Shown: positions 931-29,892, counted from the stretch's first letter. The stretch is 30,891 bases of DNA from Actinomycetota bacterium (GCA_046724155.1 JBKOWA010000243.1:1-30891), one strand, 5' to 3'. Program-made: numbers and translations. Notes: generated from the sequence alone by a model not told the origin.

Positions 931-1108
931 CCGCCCCGACGCCACCGGAGGTTCCCGCCCAGCTCAACCCGCCGACCGCGCCCGAACTGCCGACCCAGCG
1001 GAGCAACCCGTGGAGAGCCTCGGCGCGTCGCGTGGCTGCTCGGCCCTCCGGCTCTATAGCATCTGCGCTATGACTTGGGGTACTGTGGAACTGGAGCCGG
1101 AGGTGCGG
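931..1108 (+). repeat. Left copy of a diverged direct repeat (TA promoter + toxin 5' end); partner at 29723-29873
   Basis: Shared blocks CCGCCCCGACGCC, CTGCCGACCCA, GGAGAGCC, GGCTGCTCGG, GCTCTATAGCATCTGYGCTATG and GTGGAACTGGAGCCGGAGGTGCGG occur in the same order at both loci. Confidence 0.9.
1056..1071. promoter_or_regulatory. Putative antitoxin operator overlapping the -10 region and start codon of the TA operon
   Basis: Inverted repeat ATAGC-atctgc-GCTAT overlaps a TATAGC -10-like hexamer and the ATG at 1070. The copy at 29821-29836 is a perfect ATAGCA-tctg-TGCTAT. Confidence 0.6.
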
Positions 1109-1421
1109 GAATGGTTGGAGCAACTGCCCACACATCTGTTCGCGACGGCGGCGTTCCACATCGACCTGTTAGCCGAGGACGGCGTGCTGCTGGGGGAGCC
1201 GTACACGAGGCAGCTCGACGGCAAGCTGCGCGAGTTACGGTTCTACCCGTCCGGACCGCCAGGCCACCCGGATCACCTACTGGGTGGCACCTGGCCGGCG
1301 GATCGTGCTGCTGACCATCTTCGGCAAGACCAGGATGCGCGAACAGGGCGAGATCAGCCGTGCCCGGCGGGTGCTCGCGCGCTGTATGGCCGAACAGCAC
1401 GTGGTAGATGAGGAGGTCTGA
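1070..1421 (+). pseudogene. Frameshifted RelE/HigB-superfamily (phage Gp49/DUF891-like) toxin
   Basis: Frame of 1070 reads MTWGTVELEPEVREWL...LLGEPYTRQLDGKLRELRFY. After about 1247-1253 the family-like sequence DRQATRITYWVAPGRRIVLLTIFGKTRMREQGEISRARRVLARCMAEQHVVDEEV* continues in the +1 frame to TGA 1419-1421. Confidence 0.8.
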
Positions 1422-1423
1422 GC

Positions 1424-1723
1424 ATGGCCGAGCGGAGTGACTGGGAGTCGGTGCGCGACCGGCGCATGGACGAGCCTGGAGCCCGGGCAGCGTACGAGGC
1501 CGCCCGGCGGGCGCACGAGCTTGGCCGCACTGTCCGCGAGCTGCGGGAGCAGCGGGGCTGGAGCCAGGCGGAGCTGGCCGGCGGTGCCGGTATGACGCAG
1601 TCCGCCGTGGCTCGCTTCGAGGCAGGCGGCATCGTCCCGACCCTGCCCGTGCTGGAACGGCTCGCCGGAGCGCTGGATGCCGAGCTGGTCGTCCAGGTCA
1701 GACCGCGAGAACACGTCGCCTGA
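1424..1723 (+). CDS. XRE-family HTH antitoxin (HigA-like)
   Basis: VRELREQRGWSQAELAGGAGMTQSAVARFEAGGIVPTLPVLERLAGAL is a classic Cro/C1 HTH. GGAGG RBS; directly follows the toxin. Confidence 0.9.
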   Translation: MAERSDWESVRDRRMDEPGARAAYEAARRAHELGRTVRELREQRGWSQAELAGGAGMTQSAVARFEAGGIVPTLPVLERLAGALDAELVVQVRPREHVA

Positions 1724-1729
1724 GAGGGG

Positions 1730-1745
1730 CGGCGGCGCGCCGCCG
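1730..1745. terminator. GC hairpin between convergent genes, possible terminator
   Basis: Perfect palindrome CGGCGGCGCGCCGCCG just after the antitoxin stop. No 3' U-tract. Confidence 0.3.
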
Positions 1746-1789
1746 AAAATGCTCACCGGGTAATCCTGCTGGCTACTCCGGTCAGGTGG

Positions 1790-2521
1790 TCACGGCCGGA
1801 GTGCGGCGGCGCGCAGCTGCTCGTAGTACGGCAGGTGGTAATCGCAGTGGGCCTGCAGCACCGGGTTCGCGGCGACCACTTCAGCCCGGCTGCCCGCCTC
1901 GCGCGTGAAGCCGGCGGTCCGGCTGGTCGACTCGTGCCACCGGCTGGTCGCCTGCCATTCCGACCGCATACCCGGCTGCCAGCTCAGCGCGTCCGGCAGG
2001 AAGGGGATGCCCACCGCCTGGCAATACGCCTCCACGGTGCCGGCCGGCCGGTCGAGCAGGTCGTCCGAGTCGATCACTACCGGCGTGGTGCCGGTGGCGG
2101 CTCGTACGGCGTTGAAGATCTCGTGCAGCCAGGCGAAGCCGACTTCGTCGCGGCCAAGGTCCGGGTTGAGCTTGTAGTGCGACGCGATGGCCTCGACCGG
2201 GTGGCGGATGATGAAGGTGTGTGTCGCGGCCGCAAGGAAGGCCTGGTCGGCGAGCAGCGCCGGGTAGTGGAAGTCCGTGGTGTCCTTGAAGAACACCGGC
2301 TTCTCCGCCGCGATGGCACGCAGCGCCGCGAGCACGTCCTGCTCGGTGCGCGCGACCCGGTCGCCGACCTTCACCTCGCCGAAGTCGACCACTTGCGAGA
2401 ACGGCTCGTGCACGACGACGCGGTCGTCCCGCTCCGCCATCATCCGCGCGAACGCGGTGGAGCGGCAGCGCGGCGCGCTCCACAGTGCGAGCACCGGGAT
2501 CCGCTCTGGCCTGTGCTCCAC
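1790..2521 (-). CDS. Sulfotransferase-family protein (P-loop-like, PAPS-dependent)
   Basis: LALWSAPRCRSTAF (5'-phosphosulfate loop), VVHEPF, VFFKD, FIIRHPVEAIAS, VVIDSDDLL, YCQAVGIPF. GTG at 2521 follows a GGAAGGGG RBS. Confidence 0.8.
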   Translation of the reverse strand: MEHRPERIPVLALWSAPRCRSTAFARMMAERDDRVVVHEPFSQVVDFGEVKVGDRVARTEQDVLAALRAIAAEKPVFFKDTTDFHYPALLADQAFLAAATHTFIIRHPVEAIASHYKLNPDLGRDEVGFAWLHEIFNAVRAATGTTPVVIDSDDLLDRPAGTVEAYCQAVGIPFLPDALSWQPGMRSEWQATSRWHESTSRTAGFTREAGSRAEVVAANPVLQAHCDYHLPYYEQLRAAALRP

Positions 2522-2621
2522 GGTTCCCCTTCCCTCTGGCGCGACTGGTGCACCAGGCGGAAAGCGCGGTGAACTACCGGGGCACGTAGTCGGAATTCGG
2601 TCAAGACTAGCACGGGCGGCG

Positions 2622-2747
2622 CCCGGGCGGGGTAAGCAAAATACGTAGCAGCGGGGCGCGAAGTCAACGCAATGCGTCCCGGCGGATGAGCTTGTCGCGG
2701 ACGCGCATGGTGTCGGCGTACCCGTAGCGTCCCTTTCGGCGCGGCAG
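2622..2747. promoter_or_regulatory. Divergent promoter region element, duplicated (inverted) at 15461-15586
   Basis: On the - strand TTGACT-N18-TATTTT faces the sulfotransferase. The palindrome ACGCA-A-TGCGT (2667-2677) abuts the -35. TGAGCTTGTCG at 2687-2697. Confidence 0.6.
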
Positions 2748-2794
2748 TTCATTTGTGCCGCCTGGTCAACCGGTGGCCCTACTGCGGAGGTCAC

Positions 2795-3673
2795 GTGTCA
2801 TCGACACCAGCGCACCCGGGTGCCGGGAGGATCGCCGTACTCGCCAGCCGGGTCGGCGCGGACGAGAAACGGCTGTTCGACGCACTCGGCCGGCGCGGTG
2901 TCCCCTTCGACCACGTCGACACGCGCGGACAGTGGTTCCTGGCCGGGCAGTGTGACCTGGCCTGGAGTCTCGTGCTGAACCGGGAGATCGGCCAGGTCCG
3001 TGCGGCATACGCAGCCCGCTGCCTCGCCTCGGCGGGAGTCGAGGTGGTCAACAACGCGGACGCGACCGAGGTGTGCGGTGACAAATGGCGCACCACGATG
3101 GCACTGCAGGCGGCCGGGGTTGCGACACCACGCACCGCGCTCGGCCTCACCCCGAAGGCCGCGCTGGCCGCGCTGGACTCCATCGGCTATCCGGCGGTGG
3201 TCAAACCACTGGTCGGCTCGTGGGGTCGGCTGGTGGTTCGGCTGCCCGACCGCGCCGCTGCGGAAGGTGTGCTCGAGTACGTCGCCGCGCTGCCCGGCCC
3301 GCAGTCGCACCTCGGGTACGTGCAGGAACTGGTCGACAAGCCCCGCCGGGACATCAGGGCGATCGTGGTCGGTGGCGACCTGCTGGGCGCCGTCTACCGG
3401 ACGGGTGAGCTGTGGCGCACCAACGTGGCGCTCGGCGCGCGGACCCAGCCGTGCGAGGCGACACCGGAGATCACCAAGCTGTCGGTCGACGCTGCCGCCG
3501 CCGTCGGCGCCGACATCGCCGGCGTCGACCTGGTCGAGGACCGCGACGGCCGGCCGCTGGTGCTGGAGGTCAACCACCGGGTCGAGTTCACCGGCTTCCA
3601 GACCGCGCTCGCCGACCGGGTCGATGTCGCGGACCGCATCGTCGAACACCTACTGGAACGAGCGCAACGATGA
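2795..3673 (+). CDS. lysX: LysX/RimK-family ATP-grasp ligase (loads glutamate on the amino-group carrier protein)
   Basis: CGDKWRTTMAL, PAVVKPLVGSWGRLV, YVQELVDKPRRDIR, WRTNVALG, VLEVNHRVEF. GGAGG RBS before GTG 2795; lysW is in the same cluster. Confidence 0.9.
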   Translation: MSSTPAHPGAGRIAVLASRVGADEKRLFDALGRRGVPFDHVDTRGQWFLAGQCDLAWSLVLNREIGQVRAAYAARCLASAGVEVVNNADATEVCGDKWRTTMALQAAGVATPRTALGLTPKAALAALDSIGYPAVVKPLVGSWGRLVVRLPDRAAAEGVLEYVAALPGPQSHLGYVQELVDKPRRDIRAIVVGGDLLGAVYRTGELWRTNVALGARTQPCEATPEITKLSVDAAAAVGADIAGVDLVEDRDGRPLVLEVNHRVEFTGFQTALADRVDVADRIVEHLLERAQR

Positions 3674-4758
3674 ACCGGGCCTTCACTTCGTCCGGCGATG
3701 TCACCGAGACGTACGCCGTCGGGCTGCTGCGCGGGATGCTGGAGATCCCTTCCTCGTCCTACCAGGAGCGCGCGCTGGCCGACTTCCTGGCCGAGGCGAT
3801 GGCGGACCTGGGGTTCCGGGCGCACATCGACGTGGTGGGCAACGTCATCGGCGTGATCGAACGCGGCGACGGCCCGACACTGATGCTGCTGGGGCACCTG
3901 GACACCATCCCGGGCCAGCTCCCGGTCCGCTCCGAGGACGGCAGGCTCTACGGCCGCGGCGCGGTGGACGCGAAGGGACCGCTCGCGGCGATGATCTGCG
4001 CCGCGGCCAGCGCGGTGGACTTCCCCGGCCGGATCGTGGTGATCGGCGTCGTGGAGGAGGAGACCCCGCGCTCCCGTGGGGCGATGGCGATCCGAGCCAC
4101 CCATGACCGGCCGGACGCGCTGATCGTCGGCGAACCGAGCGGCTGGTCGAGCGTGGTGCTCGGCTACAAGGGCAAGCTCGACCTGCGCTACACCGTCAAG
4201 TGCCCTGCCACCCACCCGAGCAACCCGGCGCCGAAGGCGTCCGAACTGGCCGTCGGCTGCTGGGCCGCGCTGGTCGACCTGCTCGGGCCGGACGCCGGCC
4301 ACGACGTGTTCGCCCGGCCGGGCGCGACGCTCTGCCGGCTCAACGCCGATCTGACCTCGGCGACGGCGGACCTCAGCGTCCGCACCCCACCGGGATTCGA
4401 CGTCGACACGCTGGTGCGCAGGCTGCGTGACCGCCTGCCGGTCGGCGAACTCGAAGTGCTGAACTCGGTGGCGGCCTGCCGGGTGGGCCGGGCCGACCCG
4501 GCGGTCCGCGCGCTGGTGTCCGGTATCCGGCGGCTGCACGCCCACCCCCGGCTGCTGGTGAAGACAGCCACCTCGGACATGAACACCCTCGCCGAGGTCT
4601 GGGACATGCCGATGGCGACCTACGGCCCAGGCGACAGCAGGCTCGATCACGCCGACACCGAGCACATCATGCTGTCGGACTACCTGCGAGGCATCGACGT
4701 GCTGTCCATTGCCGTCTCGGAGCTCGCGCCCTGCCCGCCCGCTCGGACAACCGGGTGA
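3670..4758 (+). CDS. lysK: LysK/ArgE-like M20 hydrolase (releases product from LysW)
   Basis: LLGHLDT, LYGRGAVDAKGP, VEEE, IVGEPSG, YGPGDSRLDH. ATGA overlap with the lysX stop. Confidence 0.88.
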   Translation: MNRAFTSSGDVTETYAVGLLRGMLEIPSSSYQERALADFLAEAMADLGFRAHIDVVGNVIGVIERGDGPTLMLLGHLDTIPGQLPVRSEDGRLYGRGAVDAKGPLAAMICAAASAVDFPGRIVVIGVVEEETPRSRGAMAIRATHDRPDALIVGEPSGWSSVVLGYKGKLDLRYTVKCPATHPSNPAPKASELAVGCWAALVDLLGPDAGHDVFARPGATLCRLNADLTSATADLSVRTPPGFDVDTLVRRLRDRLPVGELEVLNSVAACRVGRADPAVRALVSGIRRLHAHPRLLVKTATSDMNTLAEVWDMPMATYGPGDSRLDHADTEHIMLSDYLRGIDVLSIAVSELAPCPPARTTG

Positions 4759-4790
4759 CCGGTGCGCCGCTTCCCGAAAGGAGTCTGTCG

Positions 4791-7700
4791 ATGACCGACA
4801 TGACCCAGCGCCTCGCCGCGTTACCCGCGGAGCGCCGTGCGCAGTTCCTCGCGCAGCTGAGGGCGCAGGCGGAGGACGCGGCCGGACAAGGCCCGACGCC
4901 ACGCGGGGACACCGGTCCGGCACCGCTGTCGCACGCGCAGGAGACCTTGTGGTTCCTCAACCGCCTGGCGCCGGACAGTCCCACCGACAACGTGCCCTGG
5001 TGCACCCGGCTGCAGGGTGACCTGGACGTGAGCGCGTTGCGTTCGGCGCTGGCCGCGGTCGTGGCCAGGCACGAGGCGCTGCGGACCGCGATCGTGGCGC
5101 GCGAGGACGGCCCGGTGCAGGTGGTCGCCCCCGAGGTCCCGGTCGAGCTGCCGCTGGTCGAGGTGGCCGGTGACGACGACGAGCAGCGGCTCGCCGCCGC
5201 GCGGGCGCTCGTCGACGAACGGGTCAGAGCACCGTTCAACCTCGGCAGGATGCCGATGTGGCGCGCGGTGTTGGTCAGGGTGGCGCCGGACGACCACCTG
5301 TTCCTGTTCGACGCGCACCACATCGCGTTCGACGACTGGTCGCTCGGTGTGCTGACCGGCGAGCTGGCCGAGGTCTACCGGTCGCTGCGCGACGGCGACG
5401 AACCGCAGCTGCCCGATCTTCCGGTGCAGTACCCGGACTACGCGGTGTGGCAGCGCGACCGGCTCGACAACGGCGAGCTGGACAAGCTGGCCACGCACTG
5501 GCGGGACACGCTGGCGGGCGCCGAGGTGCTGGAGTTCCCGACCGACCGGCCACGTGGCGACGCGCAGACCTTCGCCGGCGGCGTCGGCAGTTTCACGGTC
5601 GGTCACGAGGGCCTGGAGCGGGCGAGGGAGCTGGCCCGAGAGGAGGGCACGACCCCGTTCGTCGTCCTCGTCGCCGCGTTCTTCACCCTGCTGCACCGCT
5701 ACTGCGGCCTGGACGACCTGGTGATCGGCTCGCCGGACGCGAACCGGCGGCACGACGCCGTGTCATCGATGTTCGGATTCTTCGTCAACATGATGGTGTT
5801 GCGCGGGGACGTCTCCGGCGACCCGACCTTCCGCGAGCTGGTCCAGCGGGTCAGGCGCGTGGCGCTGGACGCGCACGCGCACGGCGACCTGCCGTTCAAC
5901 AAGCTGGTCGACGCCGTGAACCCGACCCGCGACCCCGCACGCTCACCGGTCTTCCAGATCGTGTTCGCCCAGCAGGACGCGGGTACCACGACCGGCCTGC
6001 CCGGACTCGTGACGTCGGAGGAGGCGGTCCGGGTCGGCACCTCCCGGTTCGACATGAGCTGGAACGTGCAGGGGGCAACGGCTCCCGGCGCCGACGCGCT
6101 GCTGGGCATCGACGGGCTGCTGGGCACCGACGCGCTGCTGGGCATCGACGGGCTGCTGGGCATCGAGTTCAACACCGACCTGTTCGACGGCGAGAGCATC
6201 GCCAGGTTCGCCCGGCACTACGACGGACTGCTGCGCACCCTGACCGCCGACCCGGACGCCCCGTTGTCCGCCGCGGACGTGCTGAGCCCGGCGGACAGGG
6301 AGTTCCTCGCCGAGGTCAGCAGCGGGCCGGCGCGGCCGGTACGCGAAACCACTGTCGTGGAACAGTTCGAGGCGCGCGTCGAGGAGTCTCCGGACAGCGT
6401 GGCGGTCGTCGTCGAGGACATCGAGACCAGCTACGCCGAGCTCAACGCCCGGGCGAACCGGCTCGCAGCCCTGCTGCGCGAGCGCGGCGCCGAGCCGGGC
6501 ACGAGGATCGGCCTCTGCCTGCGCAGGAACGTGGACCTGCCGGCAGCGATGCTCGCGGTGCTCAAGACCGGCGCGGCCTACGTGCCACTCGACCCGGCGC
6601 ATCCCCCCGCGCGGGTCGCGGAGATCGCCGCCGACGCGGGTGTACGCGCGGTGGTCGCGCACGCCGACGTCGCCGGGACCGTGAGCGCGGTCACCGCGCC
6701 CGTCGTGGTGCTGGACGACATCCGCGCGGAACTGGCGGCGATGCCCGCCCCAAACCCCCCGCTCGCCGCGAAACCCGGCGGCGTCGCGTACATCATCTAC
6801 ACCTCCGGCAGCACCGGCAGGCCGAAGGGTGTACTGCTCGAACATCGCGGCGTGGTCAACTTCGCCGACTCCACGCGGGACCTGTTCGACCTGACACCGG
6901 ACGACCGGGTGCTCGGGTTCGCGTCGGTCACCTTCGACGTCTCGGTGTTCGAGACGTTCTCCGCGTTGCTGACCGGGGCACGCCTGTGCCTGGCGACCGA
7001 CGACGAACGGCTGTCCATCGACCGGCTCCAGTCGCTGATGGAACGAGCCGGCATCACCGTCATCGACCTGCCGCCGACCGTGATGCCGTTGCTGACGCCG
7101 GAGAGGTTCACCGACCTGCGGATCGCGTTCGTCGGCGGTGAGGCGTTCAGCGGCGAACTGGTGAACCGGTGGAACCGAGGCAGGCGGCTGTTCAACGGCT
7201 ACGGGCCGACCGAGTGCACGGTGACGATGATCGTCGAGGAGTGCGCGGGCACCTGGGACGCCTCGCCGCCGATCGGCCTGCCCATGGCCAACCACGTCGC
7301 GCACGTGCTGGACCGCGAGTTCCGCCAGGTGCCGGTCGGCGTGCCGGGCGAACTGGTGATCGGTGGTGCCGGGCTGGCGCGCGGTTACCTCAACCGCGCC
7401 GAGCTGACCGCGGAGAAGTTCGTCACCGACCCGTTCGGCACCGCGCCGGGCGGGCGGTTGTACCGGACCGGAGACCTGGTGAAGCGGCTGCCGGACGGGC
7501 GGCTGGTCTTCCTCGGCCGGCTCGACCAGCAGGTCAAGATCCGCGGCCTGCGGATCGAGCTGGGCGAGGTGGAGTCGGCGTTGGCCGGCGTCGCCGGAAT
7601 CGGGCCGGTCAGCGTGCAGCCGTGGACCGACGACGCCGGTGACAAGCACCTGGTCGGCTACCTGACGGGCGTCACCGAGCAGCAGGTGCCGGCGGTGCGC

Positions 7701-8177
7701 GAGCATCTCGGCACGCTCCTGCCGTCGTACATGATCCCGTCGTACTTCGTTGTCCTCGACGAACTTCCGCTCACCAGCAGCGGCAAGGTCGACTGGCGCA
7801 GGCTGCCCGCGCCGGACCCGAGCTCGGCGGGCGACGGGTCAGGCGGCGAACCGCGTACCGCGACCGAACGGGTGCTGCTGCGCGAAGTGCTCACCCCGCT
7901 GCTGCGCTACGACCGGCTCGGCGTGCACGACGACTTCTTCCAGGCCGGCGGCAACAGTCTCCAGGCCGCTCAGCTGATGTCGGCGATCAACCGCAGGTTC
8001 GAGGTGGAGATCGCGCTCGCCGACTTCTTCGTCGCACCCACCGTCGCGCACCTGGCCACCATCATCGACACCGTCCGCGCCGCGCGACTCAGTGACGACG
8101 ACCTGCTCGACATGCTGGAGAGCATGTCCGACGAGGAGGCGGTCCGGATGTTCGACGACCTGGACGGCCGGTCATGA
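4791..8177 (+). CDS. Single-module NRPS, C-A-T
   Basis: C domain with LSHAQETLWF, RHEALRT, HHIAFDD (5316-5336). A domain with YIIYTSGSTGRPKG, FDVS, NGYGPTE, GELVIGGAGLARGY, LYRTGDL, QVKIRGLRIELGEVE. T domain FFQAGGNSL (Ser 7956-7958). GAAAGGAG RBS before ATG 4791. Confidence 0.95.
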   Translation: MTDMTQRLAALPAERRAQFLAQLRAQAEDAAGQGPTPRGDTGPAPLSHAQETLWFLNRLAPDSPTDNVPWCTRLQGDLDVSALRSALAAVVARHEALRTAIVAREDGPVQVVAPEVPVELPLVEVAGDDDEQRLAAARALVDERVRAPFNLGRMPMWRAVLVRVAPDDHLFLFDAHHIAFDDWSLGVLTGELAEVYRSLRDGDEPQLPDLPVQYPDYAVWQRDRLDNGELDKLATHWRDTLAGAEVLEFPTDRPRGDAQTFAGGVGSFTVGHEGLERARELAREEGTTPFVVLVAAFFTLLHRYCGLDDLVIGSPDANRRHDAVSSMFGFFVNMMVLRGDVSGDPTFRELVQRVRRVALDAHAHGDLPFNKLVDAVNPTRDPARSPVFQIVFAQQDAGTTTGLPGLVTSEEAVRVGTSRFDMSWNVQGATAPGADALLGIDGLLGTDALLGIDGLLGIEFNTDLFDGESIARFARHYDGLLRTLTADPDAPLSAADVLSPADREFLAEVSSGPARPVRETTVVEQFEARVEESPDSVAVVVEDIETSYAELNARANRLAALLRERGAEPGTRIGLCLRRNVDLPAAMLAVLKTGAAYVPLDPAHPPARVAEIAADAGVRAVVAHADVAGTVSAVTAPVVVLDDIRAELAAMPAPNPPLAAKPGGVAYIIYTSGSTGRPKGVLLEHRGVVNFADSTRDLFDLTPDDRVLGFASVTFDVSVFETFSALLTGARLCLATDDERLSIDRLQSLMERAGITVIDLPPTVMPLLTPERFTDLRIAFVGGEAFSGELVNRWNRGRRLFNGYGPTECTVTMIVEECAGTWDASPPIGLPMANHVAHVLDREFRQVPVGVPGELVIGGAGLARGYLNRAELTAEKFVTDPFGTAPGGRLYRTGDLVKRLPDGRLVFLGRLDQQVKIRGLRIELGEVESALAGVAGIGPVSVQPWTDDAGDKHLVGYLTGVTEQQVPAVREHLGTLLPSYMIPSYFVVLDELPLTSSGKVDWRRLPAPDPSSAGDGSGGEPRTATERVLLREVLTPLLRYDRLGVHDDFFQAGGNSLQAAQLMSAINRRFEVEIALADFFVAPTVAHLATIIDTVRAARLSDDDLLDMLESMSDEEAVRMFDDLDGRS
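6093..6164 (+). repeat. In-frame 4 x 18-nt tandem repeat inside the NRPS C domain
   Basis: GACGCGCTGCTGGGCATC GACGGGCTGCTGGGCACC GACGCGCTGCTGGGCATC GACGGGCTGCTGGGCATC, encoding DALLGI DGLLGT DALLGI DGLLGI. Confidence 0.95.
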
Positions 8178-9070: not shown

Positions 9071-9080
9071 GGAGACGCAC

Positions 9081-10235: not shown

Positions 10236-10236
10236 C

Positions 10237-11319: not shown

Positions 11320-11322
11320 GGC

Positions 11323-12036: not shown

Positions 12037-12326
12037 CGTGTCCCGCCTCGATGAGGGGTGGCTGGCAGACCCGCTCGACCACCATACGTGACCAGGTCGA
12101 CGTCGCCGTCACAGTGACCGGGCACGGCGGGGATCCCGGCCAGGTCATTCGGCACGTGCTGCGTCAGGAAAGCTCCGCCGCGTCCTCATCGCCACCAGAT
12201 TCCGCCTTGCTCGGCCCGAACAGCCGACCCCCGCAGAAGTCCGGGCCATCCGCCCGGACCGGGAAGACTCAGCCGCATAGCAGCGAAACTTGAGCTTGTC
12301 GTCCACAGCGGACGCTACGCTGCTGC

Positions 12327-12377
12327 TCGATCGTTTCACCCGGTGTTTTCGAGCGAATGGCTGGTGTTTTCGAGCGA
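12327..12377 (+). promoter_or_regulatory. Direct-repeat array upstream of the amidinotransferase
   Basis: GGTGTTTTCGAGCGA at 12342-12356 and 12363-12377. TCGA(G/T)CG cores start at 12327, 12349 and 12370. Confidence 0.5.
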
Positions 12378-12423
12378 CCGACTGGCGCCGTGCTGGCGGC
12401 GCCCGGCAGGGGAGGGAAACCCG

Positions 12424-15460: not shown

Positions 15461-15586
15461 CTGCCGCGTCGCGAGGGACGTTACGGGTCCGCCGGCACCG
15501 TGCGCGTCCGCGACAAGCTCATCCCCGGGGACGCACTGCGTTGACCTTCCTCCCGGGTGGCTGCGTATTTCGCTTACCTGCCCGGG
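15461..15586 (+). repeat. Inverted, diverged copy of 2622-2747
   Basis: By-eye alignment gives 10 mismatches in the first 85 nt, an identical core TGCGCGTCCGCGACAAGCTCATCC, and retained ACGCA-N-TGCGT, TTGAC and CGTATTT.GCTTACC. Confidence 0.9.
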
Positions 15587-15595
15587 TTGCGCCCG

Positions 15596-15810
15596 ACTTC
15601 GACGACGGCTCGGTCGCGCGGGACCGCTGCGGGTCTCCGACTTTCTGGGCGGCGCCTGCATGGTTCGGCGAACTCAAGGCGTTTGAGAACCGGGTCATGC
15701 ACTATCCGCACCACGTGCAGCGGGGCGTGTCCGCGGTCATGCGGGCGCAGCGGGTGCCGGTCACCCGGCGTGCCGGCCTGGCCACCGTCCGGCTGCCCCG
15801 CAACATCGCG
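15596..15810 (+). repeat. Inverted copy of 27418-27632 (internal fragment of the aziU2-like gene)
   Basis: 215 bp with 7 substitutions and 2 single-base indels by eye. Both loci translate to FWAAPAWFGELKAFE..VMHYPHHVQRGVSAVM.AQRVPVTRRAGLA.VRLPRNIA. Confidence 0.95.
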
Positions 15811-15828
15811 GAAAGGGTGGACCACGCA

Positions 15829-19658: not shown

Positions 19659-19729
19659 AGAGGATGGGCATGGAATACGAGACCACGCCGGCGACGCGCG
19701 GTACCTCGGGCGTCAATGGAGCGCCAGAA

Positions 19730-21025: not shown

Positions 21026-21077
21026 CGTCAGCTCCTTCCTCAGTGAGTCGGGATAGTCCTCGGACGGGAGGTTCCGG

Positions 21078-21923: not shown

Positions 21924-21946
21924 GGTGTCTCCAGTTCGCCGGGGCC

Positions 21947-22972: not shown

Positions 22973-23012
22973 GACCAGGACCCGGTGCACGCCGCACGCC
23001 TGCGCACGACGA

Positions 23013-23186
23013 CTACTCTCCCCAGTCCTCTTCGACCTCGGGCGCGAGGGCGAGCACCACCGGGCTCAACGCCACGATCTCCAGTTCGTTTCGGCAGCCC
23101 GCACACTCGACGATCTCGTTGAGCCGCACCGAGTGGCCGATCTGCACCTCGTCCTCGCACTCCGGGCAGGTCTGCGCTGTGGTCAT
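23013..23186 (-). CDS. lysW: Amino-group carrier protein LysW/AmCP, 57 aa
   Basis: CPEC...CAGC zinc ribbon and the invariant C-terminal EDWGE. GAAAGGA RBS. Confidence 0.96.
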   Translation of the reverse strand: MTTAQTCPECEDEVQIGHSVRLNEIVECAGCRNELEIVALSPVVLALAPEVEEDWGE

Positions 23187-24151
23187 GTGGTGGTGTCCTT
23201 TCGGTCGGTCGTCCGGGAGCGGGCAGCCGTGTCGAGGGCGGTGCGGACCGTCCGCACGACCCGCTCCGCGGTGAGGTCGTAGTGCGTGACGAGGTGTTCC
23301 TGGCTGCCGACCGCGTCGACGAACTGATCCGGCATGCCCAGCCTCAACACCCTCGTGGGCGCTGCCTCCGCCAGTGCTTCGGCCACCGCGCCGCCGAGGC
23401 CGCCGTTGCGCCAGTGCTCTTCGACAGTCACGACGAGCGTGGCCGGTCGCGCCGCGGCCACCAGTGTCTCCGTGTCGAGCGGCCGCAGCGTGTGCAGGTT
23501 CAGCACGGTGGTTTCGATGCCTTGCCCGGCAAGGACATCCGCTGCGGCGAGGCAGGCGAGCACCGGGTACGGGCCGCAGCACGCGAGCACCACGTCGCCG
23601 CCCTGCCGCAGCGTCTGTGCCTGCCCGATGACCGGGGGAGGGGATGCGGGCAGCGGCGGTGACGGTTTGCGGCCGAGCCGGACGTAGAGCGGTCCGGCCA
23701 GGCTCAGGCTCTGCTCGACGAACGCCTCCGTGGCGGCGGCGTCGGCAGGCACCACCACCGTCATTCCCGGCAGCACCCGTAGCACGGCGAGGTCTTCCAG
23801 GGCCTGGTGAGTCGGACCGAGGTGGCCCGCGGCGAGCCCGCCGTGGGTGGCCATGATGCGGACCGGCAACCGGTTGTAGGCGATGTCGATCTTGACGGCT
23901 TCCAGCGCGCGGGATGCGGCGAAGGCGGCCATCGTGTTGACGAACGGAATCCGCCCGCACGCGGCCAGCCCGGCTGCTATGCCCATCAGGTTGTGCTCGG
24001 CGATGCCGAGGTTGAGGTACTGCTCGCCGGCCGCTGTGGCGTGCTCCGCGCTGAACAGGCCGGTGTCGGTGTCCAGGCAGATCAGGTCGGGATGCCGGTT
24101 CAGCAAGGGAAGCAGACAGTCCCGGTAGGCCTCTCGGGTCGAGCGGCTCAT
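23183..24151 (-). CDS. Transketolase C-terminal subunit (pyrimidine-binding + C domain)
   Basis: NLGIAEHNLMGIAAGLA, HLGPTHQALED, PLYVRLGR, RPLD, VTVEEH, GGLG. 4-nt overlaps with both neighbours. Confidence 0.92.
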   Translation of the reverse strand: MSRSTREAYRDCLLPLLNRHPDLICLDTDTGLFSAEHATAAGEQYLNLGIAEHNLMGIAAGLAACGRIPFVNTMAAFAASRALEAVKIDIAYNRLPVRIMATHGGLAAGHLGPTHQALEDLAVLRVLPGMTVVVPADAAATEAFVEQSLSLAGPLYVRLGRKPSPPLPASPPPVIGQAQTLRQGGDVVLACCGPYPVLACLAAADVLAGQGIETTVLNLHTLRPLDTETLVAAARPATLVVTVEEHWRNGGLGGAVAEALAEAAPTRVLRLGMPDQFVDAVGSQEHLVTHYDLTAERVVRTVRTALDTAARSRTTDRKDTTT

Positions 24152-24990
24152 CGGGCGGGATCCGTGGTCCGCAGCGCGCCGATCGCCCGTGCGTGGTTGC
24201 GCTTCGACAGCGTCACGTAGTGGCTGGCTGCCCGGCCGGCGAGGAACGGGAGCCCGTGGCCCTTGACCGTGCGGGCGATCAGCACGCTCGGCCGGCCCGG
24301 CTCCCACGGCGCGGCGGCGAGGTGGTCTGCCAGCTGGGCTGCGTCGTGGCCGTCCACGTCGCGGACCGCCCAGCCGAAACCGCGCCAGCGGTCGGCCAGT
24401 GGCTCCATCGGCGCGACTCGCTCGGTGGAACCGGTCAGCTGCAGCCCGTTGCGGTCCACCACGGCGACCAGCCGGTCCAGCCGCAGCGACGCGGCCGCGA
24501 TCGCCGCCTCCCACACCGAACCTTCCTGGAGCTCGCCGTCGCCGAGCAGCACGAAGCTGCGCGAGTCACGGCCGGCGTACCGGGTGGCCAGCGCGAACCC
24601 GCAGGCCAGCGCGAGACCGTGGCCGAGGGACCCGGTCGGCAGCTCCACGCCGGGCACCGCGCGTACCGGATGGCCCATCAGCCTGCTGCCGGGCCGGCCG
24701 TATCCGGCGAGTTCCTCGACCGGAAGGAAACCCCGTTCGGCCAGCGTCGCGTACAGGGCAACGGCGGCGTGGCCCTTGCTGAGCAGGAAACGGTCGCGGG
24801 CCGGGTCGTCGGGCCGCTGCGGGTCCACGTTCAGCACCGAGAAGTACAACGCGGTGAGCACCTCGACACAGGAGAACGCGCCGCCGAGATGGCCGCCTTC
24901 CGGTCCCGCACACATGTCGACGACGTGCGAGCGGATGCGTGCGGAGACCGACTCCAGCGTGTCCCGCGCCGGGACCGGGGCGGCGGTCAT
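24148..24990 (-). CDS. Transketolase N-terminal (ThDP-binding) subunit
   Basis: [59 protein letters not shown]. Confidence 0.92.
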
Positions 24991-26282
24991 GACGCTGCCG
25001 CCGCAAGGGTGGCCACCATGTCGGTGTTGGCCCACACCTTCTCGAAGGCGTCGGCGTAGAGGCGGAGCAGGTCGCCCGACCCTGGATGGAGGTGACGTTT
25101 CTGGAGGGTCAGCGAGTCGGCGATGACCGCGCGGGCCACCGGGTAGCCCGCACCCGCCACCGGTCCGGGTGCGCCGGTCACGGACCAGGGGTAGCCCGCG
25201 CCGAAGCCGATCCGGTCGACGAACACCTTCTGGTCGGGCAGCGGCATGAGCTGGTACTGCGACATCGGCACGCCCTCGGCGCGCAGCAGCCGCCGCAGGG
25301 CTGAGCGCAGGGCCTCCGGCCGCACCGCGTCCAGACCGAACGCGGCCGGGTCGAACCGGAACCGCAGGATGTGCCAGGCGTGGGTGGTGTGCGGGCGCGC
25401 GGCCGGCACGCGCAGGCCGGGCAGCGCCGCGAGCCGCGCGAGGAAGTCGCCGACGTTGCGTTGCCGCGCGCGTTCGTAGTCGTCGAACCGGGTGAGCTGC
25501 GCGTCGGCGAACGCGGCCTGGATGGCGTTCATCTTGTGGTTCCAGCCGAGGCCGTAGGACACGTAGTCGCGCTCGCGGCCGCTCTCGATCACCTCGCCGA
25601 ACTGCCTGCCCCTGCGCACCGACCCGGCCAGCTCGGCGTCGCGGGTCACGAGCAGGCCGCCTTCACCGCAGGTGGGGATGTTCTTGGTGACCTGGAGGCT
25701 GAACGCACCCGCGTCGCCGATCCCACCGACCGGCCGCCCGCGGTGGGTCGCGCCCGGGGCCTGCGCGGCGTCCTCGACCACGGCGAGGCCGTGCCTGCCC
25801 GCGATGTCGGTGAGCCGGTCCATGTCGGCGGGTGCGCCGTGCAGGTGCACCGGGATGATCGCCGCGGTCCTGGCGGTGATCCGGCGCTCCACGTCGTCCG
25901 GGTCGAGGTCGAAGGTGACCGGGTCGACGTCGGCGAACACGGGAACGGCCATCTGGTGCAGGGGCGCGAGCCCGGTGGCGATGAAGCTGAGCGCGGGCAC
26001 GATCACCTCGTCTCCCGGCCCGACACCGAGCGCGGCCAACGCGAGGGACAGTGCGGCGGTGCCGGTGGACACCGCGACGCAGTGGTCGAAGCCGAACCGT
26101 TGCGCCCAGTGCTCCTCGAGGGCGGAAACCGGGTTCGCACCGTCCGAGTTGGACACAAGTCTGGCGCTGTCGAGTGCGTCGATGACGGCCTTGCGGTCTT
26201 CGTCCTCGACCAGCGGCCAGTCCACGCGGCGCCGGTCCTTCGGCACGGCTGCGGTGCCGCCGAACGCTGCCAGCCTGCTCAT
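24987..26282 (-). CDS. DegT/DnrJ/EryC1/StrS-family PLP aminotransferase
   Basis: [49 protein letters not shown] (Schiff-base Lys), GEGG. Confidence 0.92.
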
Positions 26283-26321
26283 CGCTGTCCTCTCGACATG
26301 GTCACGGTGGCCGAACCACCG

Positions 26322-27374
26322 TCACAGTCGCGCCGCTGCCGCGTCCACGGCGTCGACCGCACCCGCGTACCTGCCGCGCAGCACGGTGGCGTGGTGCGCG
26401 ATGTCGGCTGAGACCGCACGGGGATCGCCGAGACCGTGCGCGCCGGTGATCCGCAGCCCGGTCCACGCGTGCGCGACAGACTCGACCGCCCGTCCGGCCC
26501 CGGCAAGCGCCGGATCGCCCCATTCCCGGCCGCAGCGGCGCAGAAGCTCACCGTGCAGTGCGGCCTGCGCCTGCATGCCCCAGCCGAACGAGTACAGCTC
26601 GCGTAGCGCGGTGGCGTCCCCGGCACGGCACCGGTCGAGGAGCTCCCCGGCGAACTCGTCGAATCCGGCGAGACCGGTGCGGGCCGAGGTGGCCGTGGTG
26701 AAGGCGGCGACGTCGGTGCGCAGGAAACCGCCGAGCAGTTCGGGGGTCAGCGGCGGGGGCGGGGCGTCGAGCCGGACGTCGAGACCGCGCCTGCCGATCT
26801 GCGAGTCACTGAAGAACGCGTCCTGGACGTCGGTGGGGTTGGTCGAACCCCAGCTGCGCAGGAACGCCTCGATCGGGACGGCACCGCGGAACGCGGGCGG
26901 CATCGCGTCCGAGACGTACACCAGCCCGCGGACCTCGTCCAGGCCGTAGACCACCACGAGGTGCGCGGCGTGCACGTCGCCGTACGCGGGCCGGAACGGC
27001 AGGTAGAAGTTGTCCACCGCGGCGATGACCAGCCGGTCGTCGGCCAACGTCCCGCGCACCTCCCGCCAGGGGTCGTCCTCATCGGCGGGCTGCCACCAGC
27101 GCGAGTGCAGTTCGTGGTGCGGTGCCAGGGCGGCACCGAGGTCAGCGCCGCCGGACTCCTCGGCAGGGCACGGGTAGTAGAACTCCTCGGACCTGACATC
27201 GCCGGGCAGGTGCAGGAACCGCCAGCCCGCTCCGAGCACGGTCAGCGGGTCGGCGCCGGCCCGTGCCAGCAGCGAGCCGAACGTGGCCTGAAGGCAGCTG
27301 ATCAGGTCGCGGTACCACCACTCTGGCTCCGGCCCGGTGACCAGGTACGTCCGTGCCGTCACGTCACTGGTCAT
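26322..27374 (-). CDS. BtrH-like (papain-fold) protein, probable AziU3/Vzb11-type aziridine-forming subunit
   Basis: SCLQ near the N-terminus, VDNFYLPFRPAYGDVHAAHLVVVYGLD, VYVSD. Overlaps the upstream gene stop by 11 nt. The AziU3 assignment rests on fold family and context. Confidence 0.72.
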   Translation of the reverse strand: MTSDVTARTYLVTGPEPEWWYRDLISCLQATFGSLLARAGADPLTVLGAGWRFLHLPGDVRSEEFYYPCPAEESGGADLGAALAPHHELHSRWWQPADEDDPWREVRGTLADDRLVIAAVDNFYLPFRPAYGDVHAAHLVVVYGLDEVRGLVYVSDAMPPAFRGAVPIEAFLRSWGSTNPTDVQDAFFSDSQIGRRGLDVRLDAPPPPLTPELLGGFLRTDVAAFTTATSARTGLAGFDEFAGELLDRCRAGDATALRELYSFGWGMQAQAALHGELLRRCGREWGDPALAGAGRAVESVAHAWTGLRITGAHGLGDPRAVSADIAHHATVLRGRYAGAVDAVDAAAARL

Positions 27375-27972
27375 GCTCGACCTCCGCCCGCTGCAGGGTG
27401 ACCGCGAAGACATGCATCGCGATGTTGCGGGGCAGCCGGACGCCGGCCAGGCCGGCACGCCGGGTGACCGGCACCCGCTGCGCCCACATGACCGCGGACA
27501 CGCCCCGCTGCACGTGGTGCGGATAGTGCATGACCGGGGTCTCAAACGCCTTGAGTTCGCCGAACCATGCCGGCGCCGCCCAGAAGTCGGAGACCCGCAG
27601 CGGTTCCGCGTCGACCGAGCCGTCGTCGAAGTTCAGCTCGACGGTGTCCTCGCTACGCCGTTCCGCCGCCGCCAGCACGTGCACCCAGTCGTAACGACCC
27701 GCCGGCACGGTGAGGAACTGTCCGGCGCAGCGGACGTTGTCCGGCCCGTCGCTGACCGGAGGGAACAGGAAGGGAACGCCGGCCACGTGGACGAGGCTTT
27801 CGCCCGCGGGCAGGTACTCGGCGGCAAACGAGTTCCTCCACACGTTGAACTCTCCCGCTTTGGTCTCCGTCGCCGCGGTGATGGCCGTGTTGTTGCGATG
27901 GCCGGAGATGTCGACCGGGTCGTACAGTCGGGTCATGGCGGAGGGCACCAGGATGTTCGTCAAGTGATCCAC
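27364..27972 (-). CDS. Beta-sandwich-like hypothetical protein, probable AziU2/Vzb10-type partner
   Basis: Clean 202-aa ORF with high-GC codon usage (GEFNVWRNSF, DNVRCAGQ, AAAERRSED, MHYPHHVQ), coupled to the BtrH-like gene. Alternative start ATG 27936. Function from context only. Confidence 0.6.
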   Translation of the reverse strand: MDHLTNILVPSAMTRLYDPVDISGHRNNTAITAATETKAGEFNVWRNSFAAEYLPAGESLVHVAGVPFLFPPVSDGPDNVRCAGQFLTVPAGRYDWVHVLAAAERRSEDTVELNFDDGSVDAEPLRVSDFWAAPAWFGELKAFETPVMHYPHHVQRGVSAVMWAQRVPVTRRAGLAGVRLPRNIAMHVFAVTLQRAEVEHDQ

Positions 27973-28200
27973 TCCAGAGGTTGGTGGAGGATGTCGGTCG
28001 CTCTGAACTAATTCGATGGAACGCCGCCCCGACAGCCGCTGTCAAGGAAATCCGGCCATCAGTTTATCGTTAATTCTTAAGGCGCGACCTTATTTTTTCA
28101 GGTGCCACCTTAACGAATGTGACGGCGCCGTTGAATTTACGGCGGAGCCGGCTGTGTGGAGTCTAGAAAACGCCGTGACCGGTCATCCCTGAAGGCGGGA
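27973..28200. promoter_or_regulatory. AT-rich divergent promoter region for the right-arm operon
   Basis: AT-rich runs (AGTTTATCGTTAATTCTTAA, TTATTTTTT). Palindromes GACAGC-C-GCTGTC (28031-28043) and TAAGG-cgcga-CCTTA (28078-28092). Confidence 0.5.
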
Positions 28201-28450
28201 CTGGTCCGGGAATGGTGCGGTCTGACGGCCGCGCCCCGGTCCGCGGCTGCGCCGCCACCGCCGGTGCCCGCCGTAGGTGGCCGCCAGCACCACCGCCGGG
28301 CGCGCACCGGCCCGCACACCAGCTCGACCAGCCGGGATGGCCGGCTACGAAAACGCTTGAGGACTACCTGAGGCCCCGCCCCGAAATACCGGCGTCGGCA
28401 CGGCTGTTATGCGTTCGGCAGAGTCAACCGAGGCGGTAGGAGGGATGCGC

Positions 28451-28744
28451 ATGCGCATCATCAGGTGGAGGCTGCGGATGGCAGCTGCCCAGCGTGAGGT
28501 GTGGACGGCTACCCAGCTACGTAAGCTGCTGATCGACCGGGCCGGCCTGGAGATGTCCATCGCCTCGGTCTCCGCCCTCTTCAGCAAGGAGCCCAGTCAG
28601 GTCAAGCTGTCCACCTTGCGCGCCCTGTGCACCGCCCTGCAGTGCACCCCGAACGACCTGTTTGACTTCGACACCGGCGCCCACCCCGGAGCCGGCAGCG
28701 CGTTCGGCTACAGAGCCGGCTCGATGGAAAAAGTCGCAGCGTAG
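28451..28744 (+). CDS. Cro/C1-type (XRE) HTH protein of the kind found in actinobacterial integrase modules
   Basis: WRLRMAAAQREVWTATQLRKLL...SVSAL...VKLSTLRALCTALQCTPNDLF. GGAGGG RBS; ATG at 28445 or 28451. Confidence 0.8.
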   Translation: MRIIRWRLRMAAAQREVWTATQLRKLLIDRAGLEMSIASVSALFSKEPSQVKLSTLRALCTALQCTPNDLFDFDTGAHPGAGSAFGYRAGSMEKVAA

Positions 28745-28896
28745 CCGGAATACCCGACCCGGTGGCGGACCCCAGGTGCCGAATGTCACCTGCTGGACGG
28801 CCGGGAACGGCGACCGACTTTGCGGCTGCGCGCGGACAGAGTGCAACCCGGTGAACGTCCCCCGCACCCGCGCGGCATTACCGGAAACGCCTGTAA

Positions 28897-28923
28897 CCAC
28901 CCCCGCACCGGGGACGGGGGTGG
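28897..28923. terminator. Stem-loop between convergent xre and vapC genes
   Basis: CCACCCCCG-N9-CGGGGGTGG, a perfect 9-bp stem. Confidence 0.55.
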
Positions 28924-28983
28924 CGGACGGCGGGACACAAGCTCAGGCCCCGGCAGGCTCATACCGCCCGGGCTGTGATCCGG

Positions 28984-29388
28984 TCACGGTGTCTTGCCGG
29001 GGACGATGTGTCGGACGGTCGGCACGCGGCTGACCGCGCGGTCGAACGATACCACCGCGCCGATGCCGGATACCTCGGCGCTGGCGACGAGATACGCCTC
29101 GGCGAAGTCCAGCCGGTCGACCTCGTACACCTCCAGTGCACGCAGGAGCAGCGGCTCGTCCACCACCGTGACCGGTGGGAAGGCGAGCACTGCCCGGACC
29201 AGCTCGGCGACCCGGCCGCGGGGCACCTCGTAGAAGGACTCCAGCACGTATACCGTCTCGGCGACGATCAGGTCCGCGAGGAGCAGTTCGTCGGCCGCGG
29301 CGAGGAACGCCGTGGCCTGCCGGGCCTGTTTCGGCGGGTCGCCGGTGAGATGCCTGATCAGGATGTTGGTATCGACGAATGCGCTCAC
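28984..29388 (-). CDS. vapC: PIN-domain VapC toxin
   Basis: AFVDTNILIR, IVAETVYVL, LDFAEAYLVA, VVSFDR. GTGA overlap with the antitoxin stop. Confidence 0.9.
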   Translation of the reverse strand: MSAFVDTNILIRHLTGDPPKQARQATAFLAAADELLLADLIVAETVYVLESFYEVPRGRVAELVRAVLAFPPVTVVDEPLLLRALEVYEVDRLDFAEAYLVASAEVSGIGAVVSFDRAVSRVPTVRHIVPGKTP

Positions 29389-29669
29389 CCGGCTCGTCGG
29401 CCGCCCGGCCGCGGCGAGGGGTTGGCAACGCGCTCGCCGCGGGCAGCCCTGGCCGCCCGGCGCACTTCATCCCATCGCGCTCCCCGCTTCGCGGCCGGCA
29501 CGCTGACTGCTCCGGCGAGGTCCAACAGGTCACGCGTCCGGGCCAGCGTCGCCCGGCCGCCCTCAACCCGGAACAGCACGTGGTCGCCCGCGACGATGCC
29601 GAGGGCCTCCCGGACCTGCTTCGGGATGGTCACCTGCCCCTTGCCGGTCACGGTGGCCGATACTTCCAT
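29385..29669 (-). CDS. vapB: AbrB/MazE/SpoVT-family antitoxin (VapB)
   Basis: ATVTGKGQVTIPKQVREALGIVAGDHVLF. GGAG RBS before ATG 29669. Confidence 0.9.
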   Translation of the reverse strand: MEVSATVTGKGQVTIPKQVREALGIVAGDHVLFRVEGGRATLARTRDLLDLAGAVSVPAAKRGARWDEVRRAARAARGERVANPSPRPGGRRAG

Positions 29670-29678
29670 GGCGTAGCT

Positions 29679-29702
29679 CCTTACATCGAAGACGAAGTAA
29701 GG
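29679..29702. promoter_or_regulatory. Putative VapB operator
   Basis: CCTTAC-a-TCG-aaga-CGA-a-GTAAGG inverted repeat about 10 nt upstream of the vapB start. Confidence 0.65.
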
Positions 29703-29722
29703 ATACCCGATGCGGCGGGAGC

Positions 29723-29892
29723 CCGCCCCGACGCCCGGTTCCTGCCCAGCCCGACCTGCCGACCCAACCCCGCATAGGAGAGCCTTGGCGCGACGCGCCG
29801 GCTGCTCGGTGCCCAGCTCTATAGCATCTGTGCTATGTCGTGGAGTGCCGTGGAACTGGAGCCGGAGGTGCGGAGGAGGTCTGAGCATGGCC
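29723..29892 (+). pseudogene. Internally deleted remnant of a Gp49/XRE TA operon paralogous to 931-1429
   Basis: Promoter + MSWSAVELEPEVR (29835-29873) joined directly to AGGAGGTCTGAGCATGGCC (identical to 1411-1429), then TAG and unrelated sequence. Confidence 0.88.

Follow-up and report, generated by a model that had tools for sequence, protein, structure and literature searches.

We propose, with moderate confidence, that the direct repeats which bracket the biosynthetic cluster in the window (the whole stretch of 30,891 nt that was analysed) are neighbouring, decaying cassettes of a single array, that the cluster was inserted between higA-1 and vapC-1, and that the repeats did not make its junctions. 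The two repeats would be adjacent copies of a single cassette of higBA type, in which a Gp49/HigB-like toxin gene precedes an XRE antitoxin gene. Copy 1 has a frameshifted toxin and an intact antitoxin, and all that copy 2 retains is the promoter/operator with 13 codons and the junction of toxin and antitoxin. The array, probably seated in a type I restriction-modification locus that has degraded, would have the order vapC remnant, NTase, higBA-1, vapBC-1, higBA-2, PIN/RHH and hsdM fragment. A horizontally acquired aziridine-type LysW cluster and a small HTH gene, together about 27.3 kb (1726-28982), would have landed in the spacer of about 32 nt which separates the stop codons of the convergent genes higA-1 and vapC-1, and the repeats would bracket the cluster by position alone.

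Results

Layout of the window

The window is a single contig with flanks consisting entirely of mobile cassettes (Table 1), from a MAG that is 65% complete (2.76 Mb in 617 contigs). The NTase occupies the place expected for vapB and the N-terminus of vapC; its gene has different downstream neighbours in each relative, and its homologues, at 77-84%, show no synteny past the gene itself. No tRNA or tmRNA was found in the window, where the Rfam scan was empty, and the Pfam scan of 33 ORFs detected no recombinase domain; no integration signature was found. An exact-protein look-up of the window antitoxin and PIN proteins gave no match, and scans for E. coli-type promoters and terminators returned nothing at the left or right higBA copy.

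Table 1. Coordinates of features in the window, with strand and basis of assignment.
Feature	Coordinates	Strand	Basis or remark
vapC (PIN) 3' remnant, unit 0 of array	1-51	-	76% to 29028-29078, 86% to L110 16-66; cut off by NTase segment
NTase, aminoglycoside-adenylyltransferase family	138-887	+	Pfam AadA_C / NTP_transf_2; NCBIfam PRK13746 above cut-off
Left higB promoter region	931-1069	+	operator-like palindrome, conserved in L006, L009, L010, L110
HigB/Gp49-like toxin pseudogene	1070-1421	+	+4 nt frameshift near 1250-1257
HigA-like XRE (HTH_31) antitoxin/repressor, intact	1424-1723	+	Pfam; 95% identity in L110/L111
Interval missing from L160-162	1726-28982	.	contig comparison
Filler, 30 nt	1726-1755		inside 1726-28982
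LysW/AmCP aziridine-type cluster	1756-27968		inside 1726-28982
A+T-rich spacer	27969-28408		inside 1726-28982
Cro/C1-type HTH gene	28409-28744	+	inside 1726-28982
Second spacer	28745-28982		inside 1726-28982
vapBC-1 cassette, intact	28984-29669	-	VapC1 28984-29388, VapB1 29385-29669; Pfam PIN / MazE
vapBC-1 operator-like inverted repeat	29679-29702		CCTTAC-N12-GTAAGG
higBA-2 stub	29723-29897	+	promoter copy, palindrome, ATG, 13 toxin codons, toxin-antitoxin junction
Low-GC spacer	29898-30099	.	matches nothing in any search
Second TA cassette, PIN/RHH	30100-30772	-	PIN 30100-30480, RHH antitoxin 30494-30742
hsdM (type I methylase) fragment, ~residues 160-172	30856-30891	-	92% to G001 hsdM

The repeats are two related higBA copies

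An earlier note on this DNA had described a direct repeat of one TA operon on either side of the cluster, and the left operon, used as a BLAST query against all contigs of the MAG, recovered it in the same orientation: 980-1108 aligns with 29749-29873 (81% over 125-129 nt, E = 1.1e-25), a second match falls in the stub at 29873-29897 (96% over 25 nt, E = 5.6e-4), and a weaker patch extends the similarity back to 931-963 and 29723-29750 (79%, local BLAST). The similarity far exceeds chance, with a longest identical run of 24 nt between the copies. The jump of the right copy to the antitoxin start, with some 300 bp of toxin missing, was also confirmed: an out-of-frame deletion has taken out the 301 nt that correspond to left-copy positions 1109-1409, and after it comes an exact 20-nt match (1410-1429 = 29873-29892) within a 25-nt block containing one mismatch. 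This single mismatch makes antitoxin codon 3 of the stub a TAG, and the right copy does end two codons into the antitoxin (ATG GCC, then TAG), as had been read. The repeat is not the dispersed element that the note had considered as an alternative, BLAST having found two copies only, and no third, in the 2.76 Mb assembled for this MAG, which is only 65% complete.

Homology upstream of the family-wide operator is limited to the left copy, the stub and the closest relative, L110, and by this measure the two higBA copies are true, specifically related paralogues. The left, right and L110 copies of the 130-nt promoter block are about equidistant. Collinear homology extends further, to positions 1-51, which match the 3' end of vapC at 29028-29078 (76%), and a vapC remnant is also found in L110 (3-121 of L110 with 29015-29132, 81.5%). 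Because the remnant matches VapC1, the locus reads as a cassette array, with a repeat unit larger than first noted.

Both toxins have decayed and two operator-like sites remain

The left operon has the gene order of higBA, with the Gp49 toxin gene directly upstream of the HTH_31/HTH_3 antitoxin gene (Pfam). Neither copy has an intact toxin frame: the 301-nt deletion removes that of the right copy, and alignment revealed 4 extra nt in the left toxin relative to the intact homologues of L010 and L006 and also to L110/L111, such that its two Pfam Gp49 halves fall in different frames. With the left toxin frameshifted, there would be no functional TA pair to do any policing. The decay of both copies follows a pattern that is usual for the family, as the L110 toxin has lost 2 nt, that of L009 has an internal deletion, those of L005, L008 and L011 are truncated and that of L007 is fused; a genome of the same family (G001) has the antitoxin and a truncated toxin, among neighbours not in common with the window. 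The locus supplies a series of well-documented cases in which a toxin was inactivated independently while the antitoxin was kept.

The left palindrome (1056-1071, ATAGCAT CT GCGCTAT) overlaps the toxin ATG at 1070, and the position of a -10-like hexamer within it (TAGCAT, 1057-1062) suggests a leaderless toxin start. In the stub, the palindrome (29821-29836) likewise overlaps an ATG (29835), which is followed by 13 toxin codons, the last 11 nt of the toxin, an RBS and ATG GCC TAG. The stub had been credited with a perfect operator; in fact it matches the family consensus ATAGCAT-N2-ATGCTAT at 13 of 14 positions, near-perfect only, yet better than the left copy (12 of 14); the L110 palindrome is perfect. 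The surviving HigA-like repressor, of 99 aa, may bind both predicted sites.

Cluster-free relatives place the junctions outside the repeats

Cluster-free relatives with a single higBA, foreseen by the earlier note as a check of its own, do exist, and the empty site takes two forms. In L160-L162, higBA and vapBC stand tail to tail, 32 nt apart, exactly as the window would be after removal of 1726-28982 (higA stop to vapC stop), with higBA 77% identical to window 1034-1725 and vapCB 82% identical to 28983-29706; the junction is clean, from stop codon to stop codon, and both cassettes are intact. In L110/L111, which are 93-95% identical to the window in the TA region, a complete left-type higBA is kept, and 2-6 nt past its stop the sequence resumes at about 30440-30453, within the 5'-terminal codons of the PIN gene.

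The boundaries accordingly lie at 1725/1726 and 28982/28983 (L160-162), or at about 1729 and about 30440-30453 (L110/L111), and the repeats (931-1108 and 29723-29897) lie elsewhere, the stub being 0.74 kb past the insertion boundary and behind an intact vapBC cassette. Neither form matches what recombination between the promoter copies should yield. The earlier proposal that an interval of about 28.6 kb entered by recombination at, or duplication of, the TA locus is not supported by these breakpoints, which fall outside the repeat in all cluster-free forms; excision by the same route is also disfavoured, since copies about 81% alike, with no identical run above 24 nt, are a poor substrate. No short near-identical direct repeats were found exactly at the insert boundaries.

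The cassettes themselves have sharp ends. The homology of vapBC-1 (28982-29706), in which an AbrB/MazE-fold antitoxin gene overlaps the downstream PIN toxin gene by 4 nt as in vapBC operons, recurs with identical ends in G001, L158 and L160 (cassette homologues at 76-89% nt identity), and the PIN/RHH homology in L145-147 and G002 spans exactly 30100-30772, with homologues in unrelated contexts too. The gene order in G001 is hsdM-hsdS-vapB-vapC-hsdR, and hsdM of contig C389 begins about 6 residues past the end of the hsdM fragment of the window. The locus shows cassette ends reused at several different junctions, and cluster-free alleles persist in soil metagenomes.

The cluster is circularly permuted and close to those of Actinophytocola

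Pfam searches identified a LysW carrier, LysX/Z/Y/K-type enzymes, a transketolase pair, an AziU2/U3-like pair, a sulfotransferase and an NRPS, a predicted gene content that places the cluster in the AmCP (LysW)-dependent azabicycle/aziridine type. Its blocks are collinear with G061, G063 and G064 at 80-92% nt identity, the homology to G061 beginning at 1756 and ending at 27968. Identity reaches 88-92% with the Actinophytocola clusters of G061/G063, in contrast to 66-83%, mostly about 70%, for core contigs; this difference suggests horizontal transfer, the host assignment and with it this argument resting on binning. AziU2 was not found among 60 relatives and, taken together with an identity to Actinophytocola far above that of the core, this absence indicates that the cluster was gained at some point.

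Of 80 related clusters, 70 have the sulfotransferase gene directly upstream of AziU3/AziU2, whereas in the window the sulfotransferase and AziU3 genes are 25 kb apart, at opposite ends of the cluster. The order is a circular permutation of that in these 70 clusters, opened at the sulfotransferase/AziU3 junction, and this permutation makes a circular intermediate, or a tandemly repeated one, the probable source of the block. Homologues of the HTH gene within the taxonomic order have only the coding core in common and give no sign of whether it derives from the cluster or from the array.

Discussion

The L160-type adjacency is most simply explained by insertion into the spacer between higA-1 and vapC-1, and we take the polarity to be gain, not loss, of the cluster. 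Against this, the adjacency of higBA and vapBC is seen in one independent lineage only (L160-162, which are near-identical contigs), at 77-82%, and the relatives could instead have lost the cluster. Integration of the Campbell type, in which the resident higBA recombined with a circle that bore its own higBA copy together with the cluster and vapBC, to give the two direct copies, the right one decaying later and excision remaining open by the same route, would fit the direct orientation and specific relatedness of the copies flanking the cluster, the permuted order, with its implied circular or tandem intermediate, and the existence of a cluster-free site with a single copy. It is nevertheless unlikely, and less economical than spacer insertion: the identity of the left copy to L110/L111 (93-95%) persists up to the stop and thus confines the crossover to the last few nucleotides, the donor circle must already have had the cluster between higA and vapC, at the cost of extra steps, and the vapC remnant left of the NTase is left unexplained. 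In addition, a repeat-derived junction occurs in no observed cluster-free form, and the homology today stands at 81% with its short identical runs (24 nt at most). It is conceivable, if doubtful, that an integrase-less biosynthetic cluster travels in circular form and settles in TA arrays via higBA homology or the hairpin-rich convergent ends of cassettes; if true, the TA array would serve as a recombination platform on which secondary-metabolite clusters are captured, and the stub would be the scar left by one capture.

Two other histories of the locus have to be weighed against spacer insertion. The cluster-bearing state could be ancestral in the group, with L110/L111, and perhaps L160-162, as deletion derivatives. 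The L110/L111 junction cuts the PIN gene and is certainly a deletion junction for that gene at least, and it must be old, since L110 and L111 have it in common although they differ by about 10%; the L160-type junction, however, runs cleanly from stop to stop between intact cassettes, and the cluster, far closer to Actinophytocola than the core is and not found in 60 relatives, must have been gained, before or after the split. We regard this reversed polarity as quite unlikely. We rate lower still the capture of an allele, whereby a fragment from a related strain (cluster, HTH gene, vapBC, higBA-2 and PIN/RHH) was anchored in the right flank by homologous recombination and joined illegitimately, at its left end, just past the resident higA, so that two alleles of the locus came to lie in partial tandem, by what we take to be homology-facilitated illegitimate recombination. 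The right arm does look ancestral (vapBC intact, no NTase) and the left arm has the derived NTase state common to L110, and all homologies between the two arms are similar (76-82%). The RHH flank, however, is 82-84% identical in all three pairs among the window, L110 and L111, and so gives no mosaic signal, the cluster permutation is left unexplained, and spacer insertion explains the L160 adjacency more simply. On the same RHH block comparison, a right flank from a more distant donor was rejected.

It is highly improbable that the contig is chimeric or foreign to the MAG. The MAG is indeed fragmented, and the window contig is its longest and without core genes, but the 19% difference between the copies could not have misled the assembler, and in two soil studies independent Logan contigs run across the higA/sulfotransferase junction (X3 spans 1553-1801 with 0 differences and X4 1479-2070 with 7), the same runs also containing the right arm. 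The flanks are, moreover, missing from the Actinophytocola genomes with the closest clusters (G061/G063), and mis-binning to Actinophytocola was rejected on this ground; a circular contig was rejected as there is no terminal overlap.

With insertion into the spacer as the preferred reading, the locus would show, in a clean natural case, where a biosynthetic cluster of DNA-alkylator type came to rest after transfer between actinobacterial families, namely in the spacer of two convergent TA cassettes in a decayed defence locus. The circular permutation provides a testable hint that clusters of this kind can move as circular or tandem DNA even where no integrase is recognised. Repeats on both sides of an island are not necessarily its attachment sites; here they appear to mark the neighbourhood and not the sites of cut and paste.

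The window copies resemble type II higBA operons in their toxin-first order, Gp49 toxin with HTH_31/HTH_3 antitoxin, 4-nt spacing and a palindrome over the promoter and start codon that relatives conserve. They differ in encoding no whole toxin: what remains of copy 1 is in effect an orphan repressor, and of copy 2 nothing but a promoter and a 39-codon nonsense frame. Arrays of TA cassettes occur in variable regions, as in Vibrio superintegrons, and the window has in common with them adjacent TA modules with sharp conserved ends (promoter/operator to stop) that recur in unrelated contexts, but it has no integron integrase, attC-like sites or known means of mobility, and its array lies in a decayed actinobacterial type I R-M locus. 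In genomic islands stabilised by TA systems, such as SGI1 with sgiAT (PMC5006074), as in the window, an acquired cargo block adjoins TA modules that could oppose its loss; in contrast to such islands, the window has no integrase, excisionase, tRNA target or att repeats at the true boundaries, and its TA cassettes would have occupied the site before the insert arrived, instead of being island-borne. With amino-group-carrier-protein clusters of the vazabitide A, ficellomycin and azinomycin type (the vazabitide work is cited in PMC9570651), the window cluster shares LysW/X/Y/Z-like genes, an M20 peptidase, a split transketolase, a DegT aminotransferase, the AziU2/AziU3-like pair, a sulfotransferase, a C-A-T NRPS and a thioesterase. 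It differs from them in its circularly permuted order, its setting between TA cassettes, and its extra arginase-family, MFS and ATP-grasp genes.

The repeats are probably successive units of a toxin-antitoxin array

The direct repeats that an earlier note had described at either end of the cluster, 931-1108 and 29723-29897, were confirmed: in a search against the whole MAG, of whose 617 contigs the longest (C14) makes up the entire window, 29749-29873 matched 980-1108 with 81% identity (E 1e-25), preceded by a weaker patch (931-963 and 29723-29750). The assembled MAG (2.76 Mb, 65% complete) held no third copy, and the dispersed repeat that the note had allowed for was thus not seen. The right copy (higBA-2) is a stub that keeps the promoter and, from the toxin ATG (29835), 13 codons; 301 nt are then deleted out of frame, and the last 11 toxin nucleotides, the antitoxin RBS and ATG GCC TAG follow. 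Its end (29873-29897) corresponds to 1410-1434 of the left copy (higBA-1), exactly over 20 nt and with a single mismatch over 25 nt.

The palindrome ATAGCAT-N2-ATGCTAT, whose last bases form the toxin start codon, occurs in all homologous operons found in other actinobacterial families. It is matched without mismatch in loci L006, L009, L010 and L110, with one in the stub, whose operator had been called perfect, and with two in the left copy. A TAGCAT hexamer 7 nt 5' of the toxin ATG suggests a leaderless higB transcript. Resemblance farther upstream is limited to the two window copies and L110, a cluster-free soil-metagenome contig, which argues that the window copies are specific paralogues, more than fellow members of the family; over the 130-nt promoter block, these three are about equidistant. 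The left toxin carries 4 extra nucleotides that are absent from L110, a second such contig (L111) and the intact L010 and L006. Loss of the toxin with retention of the antitoxin is recurrent in the family, through a separate 2-nt deletion (L110), an internal deletion (L009), truncation (L005, L008 and L011) or fusion to the antitoxin (L007). The stub can reasonably be considered a putative decoy for the repressor; since the left toxin is dead, such an effect would touch regulation rather than addiction.

Features of the locus, from left to right
Feature	Coordinates	Remarks
vapC 3' end	1-51	76% to VapC1; longer remnant in L110, 82%
Aminoglycoside-adenylyltransferase-family gene (NTase)		left of higBA-1
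Gp49/HigB-like toxin	1070-1421	left operon, first gene (Pfam)
XRE antitoxin	1424-1723	left operon, second gene (Pfam)
Cluster genes	1756-27968	LysX, M20 peptidase, LysZ, LysY; split transketolase, DegT aminotransferase; BtrH-like gene and partner (AziU2/AziU3-like), sulfotransferase; C-A-T NRPS, thioesterase, acyl-CoA dehydrogenases; LuxR-type regulator, arginase-family gene, SDR, class III aminotransferase, MFS transporter, ATP-grasp genes (Pfam)
A+T-rich spacer, then Cro/C1-type HTH gene		first elements right of cluster
vapBC, intact	28984-29669	right of HTH gene, before stub
Low-GC spacer, 202 nt		between stub and second PIN/RHH pair
Second PIN/RHH pair	30100-30742	after low-GC spacer
Type I methylase gene fragment, 36 nt	30856-30891	contig's right end

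We read the locus as a series of TA cassettes within a decayed type I R-M locus, with the two repeats as successive units. Its order would be vapC remnant, NTase (in the place of vapB and the VapC N-terminus), higBA-1, insert, vapBC-1, higBA-2 stub, spacer, PIN/RHH and hsdM fragment. Four contexts show the vapBC cassette with identical ends (28982-29706): within hsdM-hsdS-vapB-vapC-hsdR in a genome of the same family (L156, G001:C17), upstream of hsdM as vapB-vapC-hsdM-hsdS (L169), next to a PNPOx gene (L158) and next to higBA (L160). In the first two, vapBC forms part of a type I R-M operon. The PIN/RHH cassette always spans 30100-30772. Both, like the higBA cassette (1034-1725), have sharply conserved operator-to-stop ends reused in unrelated contexts. 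In C389 of the same MAG (3-1445), hsdM begins about 6 residues after the window's fragment breaks off; the two may be halves of a single gene that the array or the assembly has divided, or paralogues. Loci L019-L022 share an identical NTase protein but not all of the genes that follow it: AbiEi/AbiEii is accompanied in some by a GerE-TPR-methyltransferase block (about 3 kb). The site 3' of this NTase is variable, again with a TA-like module.

Junctions of the cluster

Single-copy, cluster-free sites, which the note had proposed to look for in relatives, were found in two forms. L110 and L111, 93-95% identical to the window over the TA genes and 92% over the NTase, run vapC remnant, NTase, higB, higA, first PIN codons and RHH gene, passing 2-6 nt beyond the higA stop to about 30440-30453 of the window. 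Since both keep a complete left-type higBA, they did not arise by recombination between the promoter copies, and their junction, which cuts the PIN gene, stems at least in part from deletion. In a second lineage, loci L160-162, higBA (77% to 1034-1725) is followed by 32 nt and a convergent vapC-vapB (82% to 28983-29706), an arrangement equal to the window minus 1726-28982, with clean edges at the two stop codons. This makes L160-162 the best candidate for the empty-site allele. In the window, the cluster sits between higA-1 and vapC-1. The higA 3' end takes part in three distinct junctions (window, L110/L111 and L160). That between higA and the sulfotransferase is bridged by Logan contigs from two independent soil studies, and the right arm is present in the same runs.

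The breakpoints in cluster-free relatives thus fall at the higA stop and at the vapC stop or PIN gene, and not at the repeats as had been proposed; on the right, the insertion boundary and the stub are separated by vapBC, which is intact and 0.7 kb long. Campbell integration through homology between higBA copies is conceivable but less economical: it requires a crossover within the last nucleotides of higA and a donor in which higA and vapC already flanked the cluster, and needs a separate account of the vapC remnant. Present-day excision by the same route is unlikely, given 81% identity and a longest identical run of 24 nt. What stands of the original interpretation is a true paralogous pair, the empty sites and a plausible circular intermediate.

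Such an intermediate is suggested by the order of the genes. The sulfotransferase lies immediately 5' of AziU3/AziU2 in 70 of 80 related clusters (53 co-directional, 17 divergent), whereas in the window it (1790) and AziU3 (27972) are at opposite ends, and the ends of the relatives' clusters (amidinotransferase and SDR sides) are joined mid-cluster. Homology to G061, an Actinophytocola MAG, starts at 1756, 34 nt beyond the sulfotransferase stop, and stops at 27968, the AziU3 start. Integration of a circle, or capture from a tandem array, would open the cluster at sulfotransferase/AziU3 and close its former ends. No homologue of the TA, NTase or HTH genes lay within 10 kb at any of the 80 related loci.

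Likely horizontal origin and content of the cluster

The cluster is 88-92% identical over about 24 kb to those of two Actinophytocola MAGs (G061 and G063), whereas two core contigs of our MAG are syntenic with same-family genomes at 74-86% and reach 66-83%, mostly about 70%, with those Actinophytocola genomes. Sixty relatives sampled from the order, the two same-family genomes among them, yielded no AziU2-like gene, and the window flanks were not found in the Actinophytocola genomes carrying the closest clusters. Together, these observations make horizontal acquisition across families likely, if the binning is right.

The gene set matches a LysW/amino-group-carrier cluster of the vazabitide, ficellomycin and azinomycin type; the AmCP route to the azabicycle is summarised in PMC9570651. 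The class III aminotransferase gene is preceded by a duplicate of some 215 nt from the 5' region of AziU3/AziU2 (15597-15811 and 27418-27632, 96% complementary), and the same stretch matches the AziU3 region of genomes G061, G063 and G064 at 83-88%. A 99-nt inverted repeat (2649-2747 and 15461-15559, 84%) in two divergent promoter regions is probably a common regulatory cassette. The LysX-like ORF (2753-3673) and the M20 ORF (3412-4758) have about 260 nt in common; in many related clusters LysX is missing from this position, and the sulfotransferase-M20 gap is only about 650 nt. Finally, the NRPS gene contains four to five tandem 18-nt units of six codons each (6087-6168), between the condensation and adenylation domains.
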